Assembly (NCBI GenBank): GCA_963790025.1
Contig: CAWBMP010000005.1
Location: 128,001-192,000, forward strand
DNA from: Nitrospirota bacterium
GTDB lineage: Bacteria > Nitrospirota > Thermodesulfovibrionia > Thermodesulfovibrionales > Dissulfurispiraceae
Length of the DNA: 64,000 nt
Reading direction: 5' to 3'
In this document: positions 7,592 to 24,052 of the stretch, in pieces
Layout of the letters: every line of letters begins with the position of its first letter
How positions within the stretch are numbered: position 1 is the stretch's first letter
The notes under the pieces: model-generated
Databases searched by the model: none
What the model saw: only the letters and a program-made list of their open reading frames with translations
Told to the model about the DNA's origin: nothing
Translations under genes and position numbers: made by a program

Positions 7592-8911
7592 ATGAAAAAG
7601 AATACTGTTTCGGTGGGTATCATAGGATTCGGAACTGTTGGTTCAGGTACAGTGCGTATCCTGCTCGAAAGCGCTCCTATTCTCAAAGAGAGGACAGGCT
7701 TTGATATCGATCTGAAGAGAATAGCGGACCTCGATGTCATCAGAGACAGGGGGATCAGCGTTCCTGCGGGTGTCCTGACTACAGATGCAGCAGCAGTAAT
7801 CAACGATCCCGAAATTGATATTGTCGTTGAGCTTATGGGAGGCATTCATCCTGCAAAGGAATTCATACTCCAGGCGATCAGGAATAAAAAGCATGTGGTC
7901 ACGGCCAATAAGGCGCTGCTTGCCACAGAGGGGAATGAACTGTTTGCCGAGGCTGAGCGCTGCGGTGTTGAAATAGGGTTCGAGGCATCTGCCGCCGGGG
8001 GCATCCCTATAATTAAAGTGCTAAGAGAGGGCCTGATAGCCAACAGGATTATCGCCGTATACGGCATTATCAACGGGACGTCGAATTATATCTTTACAAA
8101 GATGACCGAAGAGAAGGTCGAATTCTCTGTTGCTCTTAAAGAGGCGCAGCGGCTGGGGTATGCGGAAGCCGATCCAACGTTCGATATCGAGGGCATCGAT
8201 TCCGCCCATAAACTCACCATTCTTGCTTCGCTGGCCCATGGTATTCCTCTGTCGTATAACGAAGTCTATAAAGAGGGCATTACAAAAATAACGGCCCAGG
8301 ATATCGTTTTTGCCTCTGAACTCGGTTACAAGGTGAAGCTGCTGGCGATCACAAAGGCGACAGATGAGGGCATCGAGATGCGGGTGCATCCCACTATGGT
8401 GCCGAATGAATATTTGATCTCAAAGGTCGATGGTGTCTTCAATGCGGTGTATGTGCAGGGTGACGCGGTCGGCTCTACACTTTATTACGGCAGGGGCGCC
8501 GGAGACATGCCGACAGGAAGCGCCGTTGTTGCCGATATTATAGATATCGGACGAAATATAATGTGTGGCGGTGTCATGCGCATTCCGTGCATTCAGGCCA
8601 AAGGTGCGACAGGCACAGGGGCCAAAAAGATCAAAAGGATGGATGACATCGAGAGTATGTACTATTTCAGATTTTCCGCGCTGGATCAGCCGGGTGTCCT
8701 GTCGAAGATATCGGGCATTCTCGGCAAATATAATATCAGCATTGTCTCTGTCATCCAGAAAGGCAGGAGTGTTGTGGGCTCTGTTCCGCTTGTCGTGCTC
8801 GCGCACAGGTCCAGGGAAAAGGATGTCATTAGTGCGATAAGGGAGATCGATGACCTGCATGTTGTTTCGGAAAAAACGGTGTTCATCAGAGTCGAGGGCA
8901 GCGAAGAGTAG
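7592..8911 (+). CDS. hom: Homoserine dehydrogenase with C-terminal ACT domain
   Basis: GFGTVG, VVTANK, NGTSNY, GYAEADP, GAGDMPTGSAV. Confidence 0.95.
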   Translation: MKKNTVSVGIIGFGTVGSGTVRILLESAPILKERTGFDIDLKRIADLDVIRDRGISVPAGVLTTDAAAVINDPEIDIVVELMGGIHPAKEFILQAIRNKKHVVTANKALLATEGNELFAEAERCGVEIGFEASAAGGIPIIKVLREGLIANRIIAVYGIINGTSNYIFTKMTEEKVEFSVALKEAQRLGYAEADPTFDIEGIDSAHKLTILASLAHGIPLSYNEVYKEGITKITAQDIVFASELGYKVKLLAITKATDEGIEMRVHPTMVPNEYLISKVDGVFNAVYVQGDAVGSTLYYGRGAGDMPTGSAVVADIIDIGRNIMCGGVMRIPCIQAKGATGTGAKKIKRMDDIESMYYFRFSALDQPGVLSKISGILGKYNISIVSVIQKGRSVVGSVPLVVLAHRSREKDVISAIREIDDLHVVSEKTVFIRVEGSEE

Positions 8912-14894: not shown

Positions 14895-16253
14895 CTAATG
14901 AGGGTTAAGTTTTTTCCTGAGGGTCAAGCGGTTTATACCGAGGATGCGCGCGGCCTCTGATTGGTTCTCCCGGGTGTGCGATAAAACATAATCGAAAATA
15001 GGTCTGTCCACTTCACGGTGTATGCTTTCATAAATATTCTTGTCCTTCTGTGCAATGGCCTGCCTTAACATCGGGATTATCACCGGGCCAAGTGTTTCGG
15101 CAGTCGTTCCCTTCTTGTATAGTGCCTGCTGGTTGACTCCGAGTTCTTTGATCTCCTGAGTGGTGAGGAAATGCGTCTTGCTCAGGGCAATGGCGGAACG
15201 TAACGTATTCTCCAGCTCTCTTATATTTCCGGGCCATTCATAGGCCTGGAGTTTTTTAAGAAATGCCTTTGTGATGCCCTTGATGGGTCTTGGCCCGGTA
15301 TTACGGTAACGGTCAACAAAAAAATTTACCAGGGGGAGAATATCTTTTCTGCGTTCGCGCAGCGGCGGGATATGTATTGTTGCCACGCGAATCCGGTGAA
15401 GCAGGTCCTCTCTGAAGGCCCCCTCTTTCACCATCGATGCGAGGTCCCTGTTTGTTGCAGAAATCACACGAACATTCACCTGCTCTTCCCTGATGCTGCC
15501 AATAGGATAAAACGTTTGAGTCTGCAGAAAGCGGAGCAGTTTTCCCTGCAAAGAAAGCGGCAACTCGGCTATCTCGTCGAAAAAGACCGTGCCTTCATCA
15601 GCGATCTTCAGCATTCCGGCCTTTGCCGAGACTGCGCCGGTAAAGGCACCCTTTTCAAAGCCGAAAAGTTCAGATTCAAGGAGCGTTTCAGGAACGGCAG
15701 CGCAGTTAACTACGACGAAGGGTTTCCCGAAACGTGAGGAAAGCTGGGCTATGGATTCAGCGATGAGTTCCTTTCCGGTACCCGTCTCGCCGGTTACCAG
15801 GACCGGGACCTCTGCCTGGGACAGCCGTGCCAGTTTTTTACAGACTTCCATAATGATCGGCGAACTCCCCACTATTGCACAGGTCGGCGCCGGCGGCAGG
15901 TTTTTAATGGGGATAGGATCCTGCAGTTCCTCTCCCATTTCATGGAGTTCCTGAAGTAATTGAAGCACGGTCTCCCGCTGCAGCGGACGATGGATTATTT
16001 CGTATGCTCCGAATGTCACTGCCTCCATCACAGGCTCGGTCCGTTTTAACTTTGTGACTGCAATAATAATGTTGGCGCGGCCCAGTTCTTTAATAAGCCC
16101 GGTCTTGACCGTATCGATATCGAAGAAGATAAATGCGTTGTGAAGGCCTGACGCGTGGGTGACTATTGTGGATCCCTTTGGGAGTACTCCCGAAAGTTCT
16201 TCACTCAGCGCCGCATCTCCGGTTAACAAAACCACTTCGTTTTTTCTTTTCAT
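14895..16253 (-). CDS. sigma54-dependent enhancer-binding protein with degenerate receiver domain
   Basis: GETGTGKE, ESELFG, GAFTGA, FFDEI, WPGNIREL, Fis-type HTH NQSEAARILGINRLTL. Confidence 0.93.
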   Translation of the reverse strand: MKRKNEVVLLTGDAALSEELSGVLPKGSTIVTHASGLHNAFIFFDIDTVKTGLIKELGRANIIIAVTKLKRTEPVMEAVTFGAYEIIHRPLQRETVLQLLQELHEMGEELQDPIPIKNLPPAPTCAIVGSSPIIMEVCKKLARLSQAEVPVLVTGETGTGKELIAESIAQLSSRFGKPFVVVNCAAVPETLLESELFGFEKGAFTGAVSAKAGMLKIADEGTVFFDEIAELPLSLQGKLLRFLQTQTFYPIGSIREEQVNVRVISATNRDLASMVKEGAFREDLLHRIRVATIHIPPLRERRKDILPLVNFFVDRYRNTGPRPIKGITKAFLKKLQAYEWPGNIRELENTLRSAIALSKTHFLTTQEIKELGVNQQALYKKGTTAETLGPVIIPMLRQAIAQKDKNIYESIHREVDRPIFDYVLSHTRENQSEAARILGINRLTLRKKLNPH

Positions 16254-16352: not shown

Positions 16353-16368
16353 TGGCATAACTATTGCT
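16353..16368 (+). promoter_or_regulatory. sigma54 (-24/-12) promoter
   Basis: TGGCATAACTATTGCT (GG-N10-GC), 47 bp upstream of ORF 16415 and divergent from the activator gene. Confidence 0.8.
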
Positions 16369-16414: not shown

Positions 16415-16732
16415 ATGGAAACAGCAAGTGTATGCGGGCTTTGTCTGGGACGGTTGAAATACCAGATCGATAATGCGAAAAAGAGGGCAGCGGCTGATAG
16501 CAGACGGGTGCGCAGCGGAAGGGTCTTGCTGGAGAGTTATTACACCGGCGAACCGGATGAAATCATAGATATCCTTGAGCTTTATCATGTAAAAGACCGG
16601 ACACTTGAGGGGGTAGTAGAGACGCTCGCTGAACTGTCCTATTCAGCATCGGTGCTTACCAGGGAGTCGCTTCATTTTGACTTTGATAAAGAGGGTCACT
16701 TCGGGCTATATCTTTCCCTCTGCAAACAATAA
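16415..16732 (+). CDS. Hypothetical protein, sigma54-driven
   Basis: 105 aa, N-terminal CGLC; lies downstream of the sigma54 promoter. Confidence 0.6.
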   Translation: METASVCGLCLGRLKYQIDNAKKRAAADSRRVRSGRVLLESYYTGEPDEIIDILELYHVKDRTLEGVVETLAELSYSASVLTRESLHFDFDKEGHFGLYLSLCKQ

Positions 16733-16878: not shown

Positions 16879-17694
16879 GTGATATCGCATAACAGGGAAT
16901 TTACCGAAGATCAATTACAGAGGTATAATCGTCATATTCTCCTGCCTGAGGTCGGGGCAGCAGGACAAGGAAAGCTGCTGGATGCAAAAGTATTCATTGT
17001 GGGTGCCGGCGGTCTAGGAAGCCCTGTGGGCTATTATCTTGCTGCGGCAGGCATCGGCACTATCGGGATCATTGATAACGACAGGGTGGAAATCAGCAAC
17101 CTGCAACGGCAGATAGCGCACAGTACAAAGACGCTCGGCATGCTTAAAGTTGAATCGGCAAAGGCGACCTTCGAGGCTTTGAATCCGGATGTTAAAGTCA
17201 TAGGCCTTGCGGAAAGGCTTTCTAAAGATACGATCAGAGATATTATCATAAATTACGATGTAGTTGTGGATTGCAGCGACAACTTCCCGACCCGCTATCT
17301 GGTCAATGATGCGTGTGTGATGGTGAAAAAGCCGCTGGTAAGCGGCGCCATTCTCAGGTTTGAGGGCCAGGTGACGACAGTTTTGCCTGGAGAAGGCCAC
17401 TGCTACCGGTGTCTGTTTGAAGAAATGCCGCCGGCAGGACATGCACCCTCCTGCCAGGATGTGGGGGTCATCGGAGCGATCCCGGGAGTAGTCGGCTCTT
17501 TGCAGGCAGTTGAGGTTATCAAACTTATTCTCGGCAAGGGAGAGGTACTGAAAAACACTCTGCTGATATACGATGCCCTGAAAACAACCTTCAGGCGCGT
17601 CAGTGTCCCCAGGAATGATGAATGCCCGGTGTGCGGGGCAAACCCCATCATTACTGAACTGCAGGACTACGAGTCTGGATATTGCCGGGCTTGA
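16879..17694 (+). CDS. moeB: MoeB/ThiF family E1-like adenylyltransferase, no rhodanese domain
   Basis: RYNRHI, GAGGLG, SNLQRQ, DNFPTR, CYRC, CPVC. Confidence 0.9.
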   Translation: MISHNREFTEDQLQRYNRHILLPEVGAAGQGKLLDAKVFIVGAGGLGSPVGYYLAAAGIGTIGIIDNDRVEISNLQRQIAHSTKTLGMLKVESAKATFEALNPDVKVIGLAERLSKDTIRDIIINYDVVVDCSDNFPTRYLVNDACVMVKKPLVSGAILRFEGQVTTVLPGEGHCYRCLFEEMPPAGHAPSCQDVGVIGAIPGVVGSLQAVEVIKLILGKGEVLKNTLLIYDALKTTFRRVSVPRNDECPVCGANPIITELQDYESGYCRA

Positions 17695-18101
17695 CTGAAA
17701 CATATCAAATAACAATACCGGAGCGTATCTTTGACGAAATGATAGCCTATTGCAGGGCCGGCTATCCGAACGAGGTGTGCGGGATTTTAGCCGGCAGGGG
17801 GCAAGAGGTCTCCAGTCTTTACCGGATGCGGAACGTCGATGGTTCACCGGTAAGCTACCTGATGGATTCAAAAGAACAAATCCAGGTAATGAAAACGTTG
17901 CGTGATGAAGGGCTCTCAATGGTGGGGCTGTTCCATTCCCACCCCGATTTTGCGGCGTACCCGTCGGCAAAAGACGTGGAACTCGCGTTTTACGAAGACA
18001 GCGTCTATGTTATTGTGAGTCTGATTGAAAAAAGGCCGCGGGCTAAAGCGTTCTTCATCAGAAACGGCACGGTCGAAGAGGTAGAAATCAGAAATCGCTA
18101 A
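17682..18101 (+). CDS. JAB/Mov34 (M67, Mec-like) metalloprotease
   Basis: PNEVCGILAG and FHSHP...PSAKD (JAMM motif); start may be TTG 17691. Confidence 0.92.
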   Translation: MPGLTETYQITIPERIFDEMIAYCRAGYPNEVCGILAGRGQEVSSLYRMRNVDGSPVSYLMDSKEQIQVMKTLRDEGLSMVGLFHSHPDFAAYPSAKDVELAFYEDSVYVIVSLIEKRPRAKAFFIRNGTVEEVEIRNR

Positions 18102-18106
18102 CTACT

Positions 18107-18135
18107 TTGATTTTCTACCGATTTTAAAGTAAAAT
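18107..18135 (+). promoter_or_regulatory. sigma70-type promoter upstream of the thrC-like gene
   Basis: TTGATT-17 nt-TAAAAT. Confidence 0.5.
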
Positions 18136-18197
18136 AAAAATTCGTTCAGGAACTGTCCAGAGGGGTTATTGCTCGCAGTAATGAACAGGAGGTCCTT

Positions 18198-19436
18198 ATG
18201 GGATTTGTCAGAGGTCTGAAGTGCAGGGAATGCGGCAGGGAGTATCCTGTTGATCCTATATATGTCTGCGAATTTTGCTTCGGTCCTTTGGAAGTCTCTT
18301 ACGACTACACAATGATCAGGAAGGCGCTGACACGCAAAACTATAGAAAAGCGGGAAAAAAACCTCTGGCGTTATAAAGAACTGCTTCCAATAAACGGCGA
18401 GCCGCAGGTGGGACTTGATTCCGGTTTTACCCCTCTGGTAAAGGCTGATAACCTTGCCGGTGCCCTCGGCATTAAGGAACTGTATGTTAAAGACGACACT
18501 GTGGTGCATCCCACTTTGTCGTTCAAGGACCGGGTTGTTGCCGTTGCGCTTACGAAAGCAAAGGAGTTCGGATTTGATACGGTGGCATGCGCATCTACCG
18601 GCAACCTGGCCCACTCGGTTTCGGCTCATGGCGCCAAGGCGGGCTTCAAACGTTTTGTGTTTATTCCCGCCTCTCTTGAGCAGAGCAAGATAGTTGCCTC
18701 GCTGGTATATGAACCGAACCTGGTGGCGGTTGACGGCAATTATGATGAGGTCAACAGGCTTTGCAGTGAGATTGCCAATAAATACCCGTGGGCCTTTGTC
18801 AATATAAACATAAGGCCGTTCTATGCGGAGGGCTCGAAGACACAGGGGTTCGAGATTATCGAGCAATTGGGATGGGAAGCCCCCGATAATGTGGTTGTGC
18901 CTTGCGCCAGCGGTTCTCTTCTGACAAAAGTGTGGAAGGCGTTCAAAGAGTTCAAGGAAATAGGACTCATCAAAAAGCTGGACACAAAAGTGTTTGCGGC
19001 CCAGGCAACAGGATGTTCTCCCATTGCCTGTGCCATAAAGCAGGGGACCGATATAATAAGGCCGGTCAAGCCTGACACGGTTGCTAAATCGCTTGCCATA
19101 GGCAACCCTGCCGATGGGTACTATGCCTGGCATGTCGTTAATGAAACCGGAGGCTACGGAGAGGATGTTTCCGATCAAGAGATTATAGAAGGGATAAAAC
19201 TTCTTGCAAGGACAGAGGGTATTTTTGCCGAAACCGCGGGAGGCGTGACAGTCGCAACGGCAAAAAAACTTATTGAGCAGGGAAAAATAGGCAGGAACGA
19301 AAGAACTGTAATATGCATTACCGGCAATGGTCTGAAGACCCAGGAAGCTCTTGACGGGCACACAGCCTCAGTGCATAATATCAAACCGAACATGGCAGCG
19401 TTCGAAGAGTTTTTTAAGAAAATAGGCGATAGGTGA
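18198..19436 (+). CDS. thrC: Threonine-synthase-like PLP enzyme (clade usually paired with a MoaD/ThiS carrier)
   Basis: N-terminal CRECG...CEFC, PTLSFKDR (PLP lysine), ASTGN, EGSKT, ITGNGLK. Confidence 0.85.
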   Translation: MGFVRGLKCRECGREYPVDPIYVCEFCFGPLEVSYDYTMIRKALTRKTIEKREKNLWRYKELLPINGEPQVGLDSGFTPLVKADNLAGALGIKELYVKDDTVVHPTLSFKDRVVAVALTKAKEFGFDTVACASTGNLAHSVSAHGAKAGFKRFVFIPASLEQSKIVASLVYEPNLVAVDGNYDEVNRLCSEIANKYPWAFVNINIRPFYAEGSKTQGFEIIEQLGWEAPDNVVVPCASGSLLTKVWKAFKEFKEIGLIKKLDTKVFAAQATGCSPIACAIKQGTDIIRPVKPDTVAKSLAIGNPADGYYAWHVVNETGGYGEDVSDQEIIEGIKLLARTEGIFAETAGGVTVATAKKLIEQGKIGRNERTVICITGNGLKTQEALDGHTASVHNIKPNMAAFEEFFKKIGDR

Positions 19437-19449
19437 TCGCCTATAGCCT
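19423..19449. repeat. Short heptamer hairpin (AGGCGAT/ATCGCCT)
   Basis: taggcgataggtgatcgcctatagcct across the thrC stop codon. Confidence 0.5.
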
Positions 19450-19468
19450 GATTTAAGGAGGTGTTTGT

Positions 19469-19756
19469 ATGGCGGTAAAAGTCAGAATCCCGACGCCCCT
19501 CCAGCGGCTTACCCAGGGGAAAGAGGAGGTTGAAGGTAAGGCTGGTGTAATTATAGAGATTATTAATGACCTTGAGGCGCGCTACCCGGGCATTGCAGAA
19601 AGAATATCGGAGGGCGGCAAGGTGAGGAGATTTGTCAACGTGTATGTCAACGAGGAGGATATCAGGTTTTTACAGGCTGAACAAACGCCTGTAAAGGACG
19701 GGGACGAGGTTTCTATTGTTCCGGCCATAGCCGGAGGTTCGGAGTCAAGGATCTAG
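19469..19756 (+). CDS. Ubiquitin-like sulfur carrier protein (MoaD/CysO family) with masked C-terminus
   Basis: VRIPTPL...FVNVYVNEEDIRFL...VPAIAGG followed by SESRI. Confidence 0.93.
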   Translation: MAVKVRIPTPLQRLTQGKEEVEGKAGVIIEIINDLEARYPGIAERISEGGKVRRFVNVYVNEEDIRFLQAEQTPVKDGDEVSIVPAIAGGSESRI

Positions 19757-19795
19757 CGTCGCGCCTGGTGTTTGACGATTAAAAAGGAGGAGAAC

Positions 19796-20032
19796 ATGAA
19801 AAGGCGTGTAAAATTGACGTTTCCTCAGAATCTTATCAAAGAACCGGTAATATTTACCATGGCTAAAAAGTATGATATCCTGCCCAATATACGGCGGGCG
19901 CGGGTGACCGACACGATTGGCGAAATGATTCTTGAACTGGAGGGAGACGAAGAGAAACTTGAAAAAGGGATCAAGTCTTTACAGGAGCAGGGGATTGAAG
20001 TAGAGTTGATCGAAGGAGACGTAGTACAGTAA
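19796..20032 (+). CDS. Stand-alone NIL-domain protein
   Basis: LTFP...EPVI...PNIRRARV...GEMILELEG; AGGAGG RBS before ATG 19796. Confidence 0.85.
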   Translation: MKRRVKLTFPQNLIKEPVIFTMAKKYDILPNIRRARVTDTIGEMILELEGDEEKLEKGIKSLQEQGIEVELIEGDVVQ

Positions 20033-21253
20033 GTGAAATACATTGTTATTATTGGAGACGGTATGGCGGACAGGCCGGTCAGTGACATCGGCGGGCTGAC
20101 CCCGCTCAAAAAGGCTGTCACGCCTAACATGGATAGGCTTGCCAGCGAAGGGATCATCGGCAGCGTCCGTACGGTCCCGGAGGGCATGCATCCCGGTTCC
20201 GATGTTGCAAACCTTAGTATTCTCGGCTATGCACCGCAGTTTTACTATACAGGAAGAGCGCCGCTTGAAGCTGCAAGTATCGGGGTTGCGCTCGACGTGC
20301 ATGACGTCGCTTACCGGTGCAACCTGGTGACGCTGAAATTCAACGAAGACAAGACCCGCGCTGTTATGGATGATTACAGCAGCGGACATATCTCTACCGA
20401 AGAGGCGCGTGAAATTATCGCTGCGATCGGAGAGAAGCTTGGCAGGATGGATCTGGTATTCTACCCCGGTGTCAGCTACCGGCATCTCATGGTATGGAAG
20501 AACGGCTCTGCGGACCTCGAATGCACGCCGCCCCATGACATACTTGAAAAGGAGATTGCTGAATATTTGCCTGCAGGAAAGGGAGAAGACGTCCTGAAAG
20601 AGCTGATGAGAAGTTCGGTTTCTCTGCTCGAAGGACATCCGGTAAACAGGAAGCGGGTGGAGAGCGGCAAGAAACCGGCAAACAGTATCTGGTTGTGGGG
20701 CCAGGGAAGGAAACCGCAGCTTCCGACATTTAAGGAGAAATATGGTATTACCGGGGCACTTGTATCCGCAGTCGATCTTACCAAGGGGCTCGGCATATAT
20801 GCAGGATTTGAAGTGCTCGAGGTGCCTGGTGCAACAGGATGGCTTGATACCAATTATGCGGGGAAGACCGAGTATGCACTGCGCGCCCTTAATCACGTTG
20901 ATTTCGTCTATATCCATATAGAGGCGCCTGATGAAGCGGGACACGCGGGAAGCTGTAAAGACAAGATACAGGCAATAGAGGACTTTGATGCCCTTGTCGT
21001 AGGCCCCGTGATGAAGGGGTTGGAAGAGCGCTTTAAGGAATATCGCGTGCTGCTTATGCCTGATCACGCAACGCCTGTCAGGATCAGGACCCATACTGAC
21101 GAACCTGTCCCGTTCGTCATCTACGACAGCCGCAGGAAGATGATGGACCGTCACGTAGCTTATGATGAGTCCATTGTTGAAAGAAACGACAGGATGGTCG
21201 TTGAAGACGGGCACCGGCTGATGGATTTACTTATCAGGGAGGTACTGGACTGA
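20033..21253 (+). CDS. apgM: Cofactor-independent phosphoglycerate mutase family protein (ApgM-like; proposed homoserine kinase in thr operons)
   Basis: [33 protein letters not shown]. Confidence 0.88.
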
Positions 21254-22473
21254 TGCTTATTGTTCAGAAATACGGAGGCACGTCCGTTGCCAATACAGAC
21301 AGGATCAAGGCGGTTGCCGAGCGTGTGGTCAAGACGGCAAAGCAAGGCAACAAGGTCGTTGTCGTTGTTTCCGCAATGTCCGGAGAAACGGACAAACTAA
21401 TAAATCTGGCCCATCAGGTTTCATCAGATCCGAGCAATCGTGAAATGGACTTGCTCCTGTCATCGGGAGAGCGTATAACCAGCGCGCTCACTGCTATTGC
21501 CATTGAAGCACTGGGACATAAGGCGATGGCGCTTACAGGAAGACAGATGGGTATTATTACCGATACGGTCCACACCAGGGCCAGGATAGAAAAAATCTCC
21601 TGCGTGAGGGCTGAAAAGGCGCTTTCGGAGGATTACATACTGGTGATCGCCGGTTTTCAGGGGATCACCGAGAATGAGGAAGTGACTACACTCGGAAGAG
21701 GAGGCTCCGATCTGTCGGCGGTGGCTATAGCCTCTGCACTGAATGCCGACCTGTGCGAGATTTATACTGATGTCGACGGCGTTTATACTACTGATCCGAA
21801 TATTGTTCCCGAGGCCAGGAAACTCGACAAGATTTCATTCGAGGAGATGATCGAACTGGCAAGCCTCGGCGCAAAAGTGCTTCAGACGAGATCGGTCGAA
21901 TTCGCCATGAAATATGAGGTGCCCCTGGTCGTACGTTCAAGCTTCAACTACAACGAGGGCACGTTGGTGACCAAGGAGGACGAGGATATGGAAAAGGTTG
22001 TGGTATCAGGGGTCGCATACGATAAAAACCAGACAAAAATTACTGTTATGGGAGTCCCTGATAGGCCCGGCATCGCTGCGACGCTGTTCAAAGGGATTGC
22101 GGATGCAAGCATCGTGGTCGATATGATTGTTCAGAACGTCAGCAGTGACGGGAAGGCCGCCGATATCTCGTTCACGGTACCGAAGACGGACAGTAAAAAG
22201 GCCCTTGAACTGACTGAGGAGATTGCAAAGGAACTCGGCGCAAAGGGAGTGCTTGTAAGGGAGGACATCTCCAAGATCTCGATTGTCGGGGTCGGCATGA
22301 GGACCCATTCCGGTGTTGCTGCGCAGATGTTCGAGACCCTTTCGAAGCACGGCGTCAACATTATTATGATCAGCACTTCGGAAATAAAAGTTTCGTGCAT
22401 CATAGACCTCAAATATACAGAACTGGCTGTGAGGGTGCTGCATGACATCTTCGGGCTGGCAGAAGGCATATAA
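21253..22473 (+). CDS. lysC: Aspartate kinase
   Basis: [29 protein letters not shown], two ACT domains. Confidence 0.95.
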
Positions 22474-22474
22474 A

Positions 22475-24052
22475 ATGATATCCGTGAGCACGATCGAAAT
22501 ATATGATACCACCCTACGGGACGGCTCACAGGCTGAGGATATTTCCCTGTCCGTTGAAGATAAACTCCGGATCACCGAGAAGCTCGACGAAATAGGTATC
22601 CATTATATTGAAGGGGGGTGGCCGGGCTCCAACCCCAAGGATGCCGAATATTTCAAGAAGGTAAAAAAACTCCCTCTTGCCAACTCGTTGGTGGCAGCTT
22701 TCGGCAGCACGCACAGCCCTAAACACAGCGTCGAGGACGACCCGAATTTAAAGGCGCTCGTTGATGCAAAGGTGGGGATTATCACCATCTTCGGAAAGAC
22801 CTGGGACTTCCATGTAAAAGAGGCATTAAGAATTTCTCTTGAAGAGAACCTAGATATTATTCACAATTCGGTCCTCTTTCTGAAAAAGTATGCCGGGAAG
22901 GTTTTCTTCGACGCAGAGCACTTTTTTAACGGTTACAAAGACAACCCCGGTTTTGCCGTTAAGTGTCTTGAAGCCGCGCAAGCCGCGGGAGCCGACTGCC
23001 TGGTTCTCTGCGATACGAACGGAGGGACATTGCCGGAGGAGATCCGGCAGATTGTGAAAACGGTCGGCAATAAAATTGAGACGCCCATCGGTATCCACGC
23101 CCACAACGATTCCGATTGCGCAGTGGCAAACTCTTTGATTGCGGTCGAAACCGGGGCTGTGCAGGTGCAAGGGACAATCAATGGGTTCGGGGAACGTTGC
23201 GGCAATGCCAATCTGTGCTCAATCATTCCCAACCTGCAGTTAAAATTGGGATATGCCTGTCTTGCAGGCGACAGGTTGAATAAATTGCGCGATGTGTCAA
23301 GGTTCGTCAACGAGATAGCGAATATGCGGCATTTCAAAAGGCAGCCGTTTGTCGGCGACAGCGCTTTTGCCCATAAGGGCGGCATTCATGTAAGCGCTGT
23401 AAGAAGGAGGCCCGAAACCTACGAGCATATCCAGCCTGAGCTGGTGGGCAATTCTCAGAGAATACTGATCTCCGACCTTGCAGGCAGGAGCAATATACTC
23501 AGGAAGGCCGAAGAATTCAATATCCATCTGGAAGCCAATTCACCTGAAGTGCAGGGCATTCTGGATTCGCTCAAAGACCTGGAGCATCAGGGCTTCCAGT
23601 TTGAGGGCGCCGAAGCGTCGTTTGAGCTGCTGCTTAAAAAAGCACTCGGGCTCCACCGGAGATTTTTTGATCTTATCGGCTTCAGGGTCATCGATGAGAA
23701 GAGGAAGGAAAGTGAGCTGCCGCTGAGCGAAGCAACGATTATGTTAAAGGTAGGCAAGAACATCGAGCACACAGCAGCCGCCGGCCACGGTCCTGTCAAT
23801 GCCCTCGACAACGCCCTGAGGAAAGCACTTGAGAAATTCTACCCTGAGTTGAAATCGGTCAAGCTGCACGATTATAAGGTACGCGTCCTGACCGCGGGTA
23901 AGGGCACCTCTGCACGCGTGCGGGTTTTGGTGGAGTCCGGTGATGAGATGCACAGTTGGGGGACCGTTGGAGTTTCCGAAAATATCATCGAGGCATCCTG
24001 GCAGGCGCTCGTCGACAGCATCGATTACAAATTGCTGAAAGAAAAAGAGTAG
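22475..24052 (+). CDS. cimA: Citramalate synthase
   Basis: [45 protein letters not shown]. Confidence 0.92.

Follow-up and report, generated by a model that had tools for sequence, protein, structure and literature searches.

A predicted MetM/MetO-type thiocarboxylate route to homocysteine in an aspartate-family operon of the Nitrospirota

We analysed a 64,000-nucleotide (nt) stretch of DNA from a Nitrospirota bacterium of the class Thermodesulfovibrionia (assembly GCA_963790025.1, contig CAWBMP010000005.1, positions 128,001 to 192,000 of the forward strand), hereafter called the window. It holds a cluster of eight genes at 16879-24052. They all lie on the + strand and are tightly packed with intergenic distances of -32 to +96 nt, according to the open reading frame (ORF) calls and the profile searches. 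Judged from its sequence and gene content, the cluster very probably encodes the published MetM/MetO thiocarboxylate homocysteine route in a form proper to the Nitrospirota (Thermodesulfovibrionia), set within an aspartate-family operon. The core pathway is already published, and the lineage variant consists in a rhodanese-less E1, a masked carrier, the supply by HomK, the lack of a riboswitch and a conserved NIL protein.

The eight genes and the homoserine dehydrogenase gene upstream are listed below with their lengths in amino acids (aa) and their profile scores. The pyridoxal phosphate (PLP) enzyme is the third.

16879-17694, + strand: E1 adenylyltransferase (MoeZ/MoeB/UbaA-like; ThiF/MoeB-type), 271 aa, without rhodanese; PF00899, 281 bits, E=8e-84
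17682-18101, + strand: JAB/JAMM metalloprotease (Mec/HcyD-like; Prok-JAB), 139 aa; PF14464, 82 bits
18198-19436, + strand: predicted MetM-type homocysteine synthase (ThrC-family PLP enzyme), 412 aa; TIGR00260, 296 bits
19469-19756, + strand: MetO-type sulfur carrier (ThiS/MoaD fold), 95 aa, ending in PAIAGG-SESRI; PF02597, 62 bits
19772-20032 (probable start 19796), + strand: stand-alone NIL-domain protein; PF09383, 67 bits (cut-off 24)
20033-21253, + strand: predicted HomK, an ApgM-like homoserine phosphotransferase; TIGR02535, 561 bits (cut-off 446)
21253-22473, + strand: aspartate kinase LysC with two ACT domains; NF005155, 615 bits
22442-24052, + strand: citramalate synthase CimA of the isoleucine branch, a co-transcribed neighbour; TIGR00977, 799 bits (cut-off 450)
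7592-8911, + strand: homoserine dehydrogenase hom in a separate upstream operon; NF004976, 537 bits

An initial annotation, made from the DNA letters, had described eight co-oriented genes, an E1 lacking rhodanese, a carrier ending in AGG-SESRI, hom upstream and asd outside the window. The ORFs and the profile matches prove it correct on every item. The asd gene is on another contig of the genome. The hom gene is found immediately upstream of the E1 or the NIL gene in three relatives.

The PLP enzyme and its carrier system

The PLP enzyme carries an N-terminal CxxC...CxxC ribbon (Zn ribbon) and scores 226 bits with PF00291 and 296 bits with TIGR00260, whose cut-off is 167. All 75 sequences compared share its PLP lysine K110, which lies in the SFKDR motif. 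A Dissulfurispira thermophila protein with 86% identity to it bears the NCBI name threonine synthase. The homolog search with MetM was dominated by relatives at least 84% identical and gave no distant named anchors, and the cluster look-ups of 10 representatives returned only "threonine synthase" names and one Micromonosporaceae match.

A plasmid collection searched with tblastn contains a Nonomuraea gerenzanensis gene with 53.4% identity over 96% of the length. This ortholog serves here as the proxy for the characterised MetM of Streptomyces albulus (UniProt A0A059WBP2). The S-adenosylmethionine (SAM) riboswitch RF00162 lies in front of it (68.7 bits), and behind it lies a 91-aa carrier that ends in AVAGG and is 51% identical to the window carrier. 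The arrangement matches that of S. albulus, where metM-metO has a SAM riboswitch upstream as stated in an excerpt of PMC12172450. The Nonomuraea record NZ_LT559118.1 (L101) is filed as "plasmid I", and is chromosome-sized with 11.85 Mb.

The initial annotation had suggested placing the PLP enzyme in a phylogeny. In a FastTree of 111 ThrC-family rows with SH-like supports, the window enzyme, 13 Nitrospirota orthologs and the Nonomuraea gene all fall in one 65-row clade with a support of 99, apart from the canonical ThrC. The second paralog of the relatives (355-380 aa) groups with the ThrC of the Priestia hom-thrC-thrB operon, outside the MetM clade.

The two sets differ also in their residues. 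We compared 76 MetM-clade with 59 canonical ThrC sequences and defined the signature columns as those at least 93% conserved within each set and differing between the sets. There are 22 such columns, and the window and Nonomuraea enzymes both carry 22/22 MetM states. The changes are concentrated at two sites. One is the N-S-x-N-P-x-R loop, which we take from the ThrC structures to be the substrate phosphate site, with S204N, N206R, R209Y and a single inserted residue, and the other is the A-I-R-I-G-N-P-A-S-W motif. The ThrC loop N-S-x-N-P-x-R-x-E-G-Q-K-T is replaced by N-I-N-I-R-P-F-Y-A-E-G-S-K-T in MetM, and the ThrC motif A-I-R-I-G-N-P-A-S-W by S-L-A-I-G-N-P-A-D-G in the window enzyme and MetM.

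The window enzyme thus departs from the canonical ThrC motifs as they are kept in the 59 sequences. It is not of the CysK/CysM type either, with 38 bits on the cysK model (cut-off 351) and 34 bits on the cysKM model (cut-off 344). By these tree and residue features, the window PLP enzyme is assigned to the MetM clade rather than to the canonical ThrC.

The carrier gene starts 32 nt downstream of the MetM gene. The PAIAGG is conserved among 79 related carriers and the residues beyond the GG are not. About 1-18 unrelated extra residues follow the GG in 74 carriers, two read through into NIL and three stop at the GG, the tail counts being shifted in four loci by a third Gly after the GG or by a later GG. 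The masking of the Gly-Gly by tail residues, pointed out initially for the window carrier, is hence general (76/79). Such a variable tail after a conserved PAIAGG has the look of a removed propeptide, and this fits the presence of the JAB gene.

The E1 sequence contains a GxGxxG, two CxxC pairs and a cysteine in ...PSCQD.... It scores 334 bits with the SAMP-E1 model NF047750, and it matches the MoeB model NF006444 only from model position 117 to 381. The MoeZ architecture of E1 plus rhodanese is absent, as the NF005902 match covers positions 12-271 of 392 with 292 bits versus the cut-off of 647. The E1 probably works like MoeZ despite the different architecture. The genome contains three genes of the ThiF type, this one included.

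The JAB gene overlaps the E1 gene by 13 nt. Its product has the Mec/JAMM domain with the metal-site motif E...HSHP...S..D, as read from the translation, and scores 84 bits with the desampylase model NF041370, below the cut-off of 130. We predict that the JAB protease trims the carrier tail after the Gly-Gly.

A second JAB (149 aa) is encoded outside the window, where it adjoins a 309-aa PALP enzyme of the CysK/CysM size and a DsrC-like protein (L005 2-2151, which is G000:C5:252098-254247, G000 being the source genome). This locus may be a cysteine module of the CysM/Mec type; none of its neighbours was recognised as a carrier gene.

Conservation and the genomic background

The loci were compared among the 80 closest ones in the genome contigs, nearly all labelled Nitrospirota or Thermodesulfovibrionales. 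MetO comes after MetM in 79/80 and NIL after MetO in 78/80, with the misses at contig ends. The metM-metO-NIL order is thereby contiguous in 78 of the 80 loci, so the arrangement is not chance, and the conservation in relatives on which the initial proposal had been made to depend is indeed seen. What follows NIL is a canonical thrC in 63/78 loci and directly homK, as in the window, in 13/78; two loci are truncated. One locus, L075, is an 80% identical MetM operon in a metagenome-assembled genome labelled Chloroflexota. This genome may be misbinned because every close relative is labelled Nitrospirota.

The phyletic pattern was examined in 121 genomes of the class Thermodesulfovibrionia, 102 of which are high-quality. 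Among the latter, MetM occurs in 96 and the Cys_Met_Meta_PP enzymes in 26. DUF39 occurs in 0 of the 121. All six high-quality genomes without MetM hold a Cys_Met_Meta_PP enzyme, and 76 of the 96 with MetM have neither Cys_Met_Meta_PP nor DUF39.

In one genus (G068, G088 and G106), MetM is lost and metO-NIL-(thrC)-homK is kept (L111 4378-7272, L112 6293-8290 and L113 726-2710). These genomes have one to three Cys_Met_Meta_PP genes elsewhere. By analogy, their carrier may feed a different enzyme, as is said of the Wolinella HcyS/MetY pair.

The source genome is 98.8% complete, and the initial annotation had directed attention to a second thrC and the canonical met genes in it. The only other TIGR00260 match above the cut-off is a divergent 450-aa ThrC at C5:30072-31421, outside the window. 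It has an N-terminal Zn ribbon and keeps the canonical states S, N, R and others. Thus, a second thrC exists and the window enzyme is not the sole one. An ortholog of the 450-aa ThrC is the only ThrC-family gene in three genomes that are 98-100% complete (G108, G110 and G112). From these sequence comparisons, threonine is probably made by the separate 450-aa ThrC.

As to the canonical met genes, no HTS-type MetA, no bona fide MetX and no DUF39 were found in the genome, the sole MetX-like match being a PRK06489 protein with ~100 bits on the MetX models. The acyl-homoserine route is missing as anticipated, but the absence does not extend to every met-type gene. One Cys_Met_Meta_PP enzyme is present, which is CGS/MGL-like, below every equivalog cut-off and directly downstream of the 450-aa ThrC. 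Hence, MetM need not be the only homocysteine route.

The 450-aa ThrC and the CGS/MGL-like enzyme lie at L002 150-2703 (G000:C5:28871-31421, - strand) in this order, and also in L107, L108 and L110. They are fused in one frame of 848-856 aa in G092, G110 and G112. Orthologs of the 450-aa ThrC with 74-85% identity occur in 11 of the 120 other genomes of the class, and the canonical ThrC is missing by match counts in 9 of the 12 genomes carrying the 450-aa ThrC. From its gene content, the pair looks like an alternative threonine/methionine branch-point module on O-phosphohomoserine.

The scans of the window for sigma-70 promoters and terminators gave nothing decisive. A sigma-54-type -24/-12 element, TGGCATAACTATTGC with one mismatch, is located just upstream of the E1 gene at 16353-16367 (+). 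It is flanked by a divergent sigma-54 activator gene at 14895-16253 (-) and by a 105-aa ORF without a family match at 16415-16732 (+). Such patterns occur 63 times in the window where 57.9 are expected, which is no enrichment. The 80 related loci lack the activator and the 105-aa ORF at the corresponding place, except for a weak activator-like match with 34% identity in L078.

The O-phosphohomoserine supply and the NIL protein

The ApgM-like family of BT2402 has been validated as HomK, an alternative to the homoserine kinase, according to the excerpted text of PMC13759103. The window protein is well above the TIGR02535 cut-off and appears to have an intact nucleophile and metal ligands. All 62 sequences compared agree in D9, S56, D300, H304, D344, H345 and H354, where the residues after S56 were mapped onto BT2402 by motif and not by alignment. 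No ThrB was found in the genome, and HomK is by its sequence the only recognisable homoserine-phosphorylating enzyme there. The initial reading of the ApgM-like gene as such an enzyme gains support from the 561-bit match and the invariant catalytic residues.

The conservation in the NIL alignment begins at M9, so the true start is probably the ATG at 19796. Counted from this ATG, the free-standing NIL protein has about 78 aa. No second NIL domain occurs in the genome, and 119/121 genomes of the class carry exactly one copy. A profile built from 62 NIL sequences hits residues 269-340 of E. coli MetN, in its C2 domain, with E=1e-5, and aligns N39 on MetN N295 and A43 on A299. The N295A substitution in MetN abolishes the L-methionine binding, as reported in an excerpt of PMC6233128.

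NIL was also considered as a persulfide relay that replaces the missing rhodanese, and this candidate was rejected. The NIL sequence is without cysteine and the alignment has no conserved Cys column, so NIL is not a persulfide carrier.

The longer NIL-matching proteins at E of 1e-5 or below are 17 in number, and consist of 15 ThiS-NIL fusions, one 166-aa protein named sulfur carrier and one NIL-PALP fragment. The single frames of MetO-GG-linker-NIL with 166-187 aa are found at L043 5704-6225 and L091 2233-2748 and in the proteins P0294-P0309. The P0303 fusion lacks a Met in the stretch from the GG to the conserved NIL start, so cleavage after the GG would release NIL 1:1 with the mature carrier. 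The predicted complex of MetM, HomK and NIL scored 0.01 versus the mark of 0.32, for a three-chain input unlike the tool's calibration, and this score speaks neither for nor against binding. Our literature searches found no described NIL partner of MetM/MetO, and Hasebe et al. 2024 itself may mention NIL.

Our best guess, with modest confidence, is that NIL binds methionine and serves as a regulatory subunit where the pathways part at O-phosphohomoserine, as its likeness to MetN suggests. The initial annotation had made it a Met/SAM sensor, for which the homology speaks (N39 on MetN N295). NIL is also kept beside homK in genomes without MetM and MetO, so its target may be another than these two. 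A more specific and tentative idea is that the cysteine-free NIL is a methionine-sensing allosteric subunit that would divide O-phosphohomoserine between threonine and methionine by acting on whichever of MetM, HomK and the ThrC-CGS fusion is present. NIL and the carrier would often arise in a 1:1 ratio from a MetO-GG-NIL precursor, to be cut by the JAB protease as ubiquitin fusions are. In plants, the threonine synthase is under SAM control. If the idea is true, the NIL subunit would be the bacterial counterpart of that control.

It is also possible, while doubtful, that NIL is functionally tied to HomK and the O-phosphohomoserine supply and not to MetM/MetO, perhaps as a regulatory subunit tuning the homoserine phosphorylation to methionine. 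The NIL and homK genes abut with a 0-nt gap, and the near-universal single NIL (119/121) includes all six high-quality genomes without MetM. In these six, NIL is always directly upstream of homK or thrC-homK, and two of them, G108 and G110, have no detectable MetO genome-wide, the order in G110 being hom-NIL-homK. Hence, NIL has a role independent of MetM and MetO, and the N39 aligned with the methionine-binding N295 suits a tie to HomK as well. However, none of the 17 longer NIL proteins has HomK as the fusion partner (0/17), all of them being fused to something else, MetO reads through into NIL in 2/79 loci and thrC stands between NIL and homK in 63/78. The branch-point subunit, which may act on more than HomK, stays our best guess.

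The proposed route, its rivals and the known systems

We infer the catalytic steps of the MetM/MetO route in this bacterium as follows. LysC, Asd (encoded elsewhere) and Hom would lead to homoserine, and HomK would convert it to O-phosphohomoserine. The JAB protease would remove the five residues after the carrier Gly-Gly, and the E1 would adenylate the exposed carrier C-terminus, leading to the thiocarboxylate with a sulfur donor other than a fused rhodanese. MetM, a ThrC-derived enzyme with the remodelled phosphate loop, would swap the phosphate of O-phosphohomoserine for the carrier sulfur. Homocysteine would be freed directly or after the JAB hydrolysis of a carrier-homocysteine adduct. 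The initial proposal that the ThrC-like enzyme is a carrier-dependent homocysteine synthase is supported by the clade, the 22/22 residues, the second ThrC and the missing acyl-homoserine route.

Several observations weigh against this route. No SAM riboswitch or any Rfam family is above the threshold in the window. The CGS-like enzyme could, by its sequence, make homocysteine or cystathionine from O-phosphohomoserine. The methionine synthase families PF02574 (MetH/BHMT homocysteine-binding) and PF01717 (MetE/Mes) have no match in the source genome, and TIGR02082 matches only pterin-binding or B12-binding pieces, none above the cut-off, in 13 genomes (the source genome and 12 of its family). 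E1 and JAB are both directly upstream in only 17 of the 51 loci with >3 kb upstream sequence, and of the others 27 have neither gene there, 4 have only E1 and 3 only JAB. Since the genomes are akin to each other and those six without MetM belong to four genera, their distribution should be read as a pattern rather than as a statistical test. Finally, TIGR00260 scores the window enzyme higher (296 bits) than the other ThrC of the genome (217 bits), and a MetM-like Microcystis homolog has a reported threonine synthase activity in an excerpt of PMC12172450, so MetM bifunctionality is possible.

A rival explanation is that the ThrC-like gene is a real or bifunctional threonine synthase and that the carrier, E1 and JAB serve molybdopterin, thiamine or tRNA thiolation. 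It can draw on the cyanobacterial protein in PMC12172450, on a TIGR00260 score far above the cut-off and on the lack, in this genome, of the canonical 355-380-aa ThrC that is found after NIL in 63/78 relatives. We regard it as improbable, given that the window enzyme has 22/22 MetM states and the 450-aa paralog keeps the ThrC states and is the sole ThrC-family gene in three nearly complete relatives. Moreover, MetM stands beside the canonical ThrC in the same operon in 63/78 loci, the carrier gene follows MetM in 79/80, the actinomycete ortholog is behind a SAM riboswitch and two further ThiF-type E1s are in the genome for other pathways. The mycobacterial cysteine route (MoeZ/CysO/Mec/CysM) also combines an E1, a JAB, a carrier and a fold-type II PLP enzyme. 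This likeness of architecture, together with the second JAB beside a CysK/M-like PALP gene in the genome, would suit a cluster making cysteine or another thio-compound via a CysO/CysM-like thiocarboxylate route. Such a product is very improbable, since the window enzyme has 34-38 bits on the cysK/cysKM models with the cut-offs of 344-351 versus 296 bits on thrC, its gene shares the operon with homK, joined by thrC in relatives, and the actinomycete ortholog is SAM-regulated.

With the MetM/MetO route as the preferred explanation, the "threonine synthase" label hides the only recognisable homocysteine route in 76 of the 96 high-quality MetM-bearing Thermodesulfovibrionia. The correct annotation alters the metabolic models of these sulfur-cycling bacteria. 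The threonine/methionine branch point in this lineage would be O-phosphohomoserine and not acyl-homoserine, as in plants, and the conserved NIL is a candidate for the missing branch-point control. Since the core pathway is published, the value lies in the annotation and the NIL question, not in new chemistry.

The published steps from O-phosphohomoserine to homocysteine are the MetO carrier, the [MetO]-cysteine hydrolase Mec, the [MetO]-sulfur ligase MoeZ and MetM, as given in excerpts of the GapMind 2026 paper (PMC13759103) citing Hasebe et al. 2024. According to the same excerpts (PMC13759103), the annotation of MetM as threonine synthase is a frequent error; they also list a predicted Mec for Dissulfurispira thermophila, which is of the same lineage as the window. 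The initial annotation had pointed to a Streptomyces route with a ThrC-like enzyme and a carrier via O-phosphohomoserine, and those excerpts describe this route in print.

The window resembles the S. albulus route (Hasebe et al. 2024, Appl Environ Microbiol, as summarised in PMC13759103 and PMC12172450) in its genes for a PLP enzyme derived from ThrC, for a GG carrier of the ThiS/MoaD type next to it, for a JAB and for an E1, and in O-phosphohomoserine as the predicted substrate. It differs in lacking the SAM riboswitch, in the rhodanese-less E1 and in the 5-residue tail after the GG. It differs also in the added NIL, in being embedded with homK, lysC and cimA and in using HomK instead of ThrB. 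No NIL is among the ORFs listed for the Nonomuraea locus (L101 3500-8500).

The HcyS/HcyD/HcyF/MetY system of Wolinella succinogenes reportedly makes homocysteine from a protein thiocarboxylate, with a JAB-type protease that unmasks a C-terminally extended carrier. Its acceptor is said to be a MetY-type Cys_Met_Meta_PP enzyme on O-acetylhomoserine, whereas the enzyme in the window belongs to the ThrC family and the search of the genome revealed no homoserine acyltransferase.

The window HomK is like HomK/ThrB2 (BT2402) of Bacteroides thetaiotaomicron as described in parts of PMC13759103, having D9 and S56 at the same numbering and the DxxxH, DH and H metal motifs invariant. Unlike BT2402, it is predicted to feed the methionine branch besides threonine, and a NIL gene precedes its gene. 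The window NIL and the MetN C2 (NIL) domain (PDB 3DHW/3TUZ; PMC6233128, in excerpt) belong to the same Pfam family with the Asn and the Ala aligned, but the latter is the tail of an ATPase and the former a free-standing protein. The window NIL is without the ferredoxin domain of the DUF39-associated NIL-ferredoxin in methanogens and Desulfovibrio, a system linked to Price et al. 2018 (PMC5764234) and named in an excerpt of PMC13759103, and yet in both cases NIL accompanies a non-canonical homocysteine synthase, a predicted one in the window.

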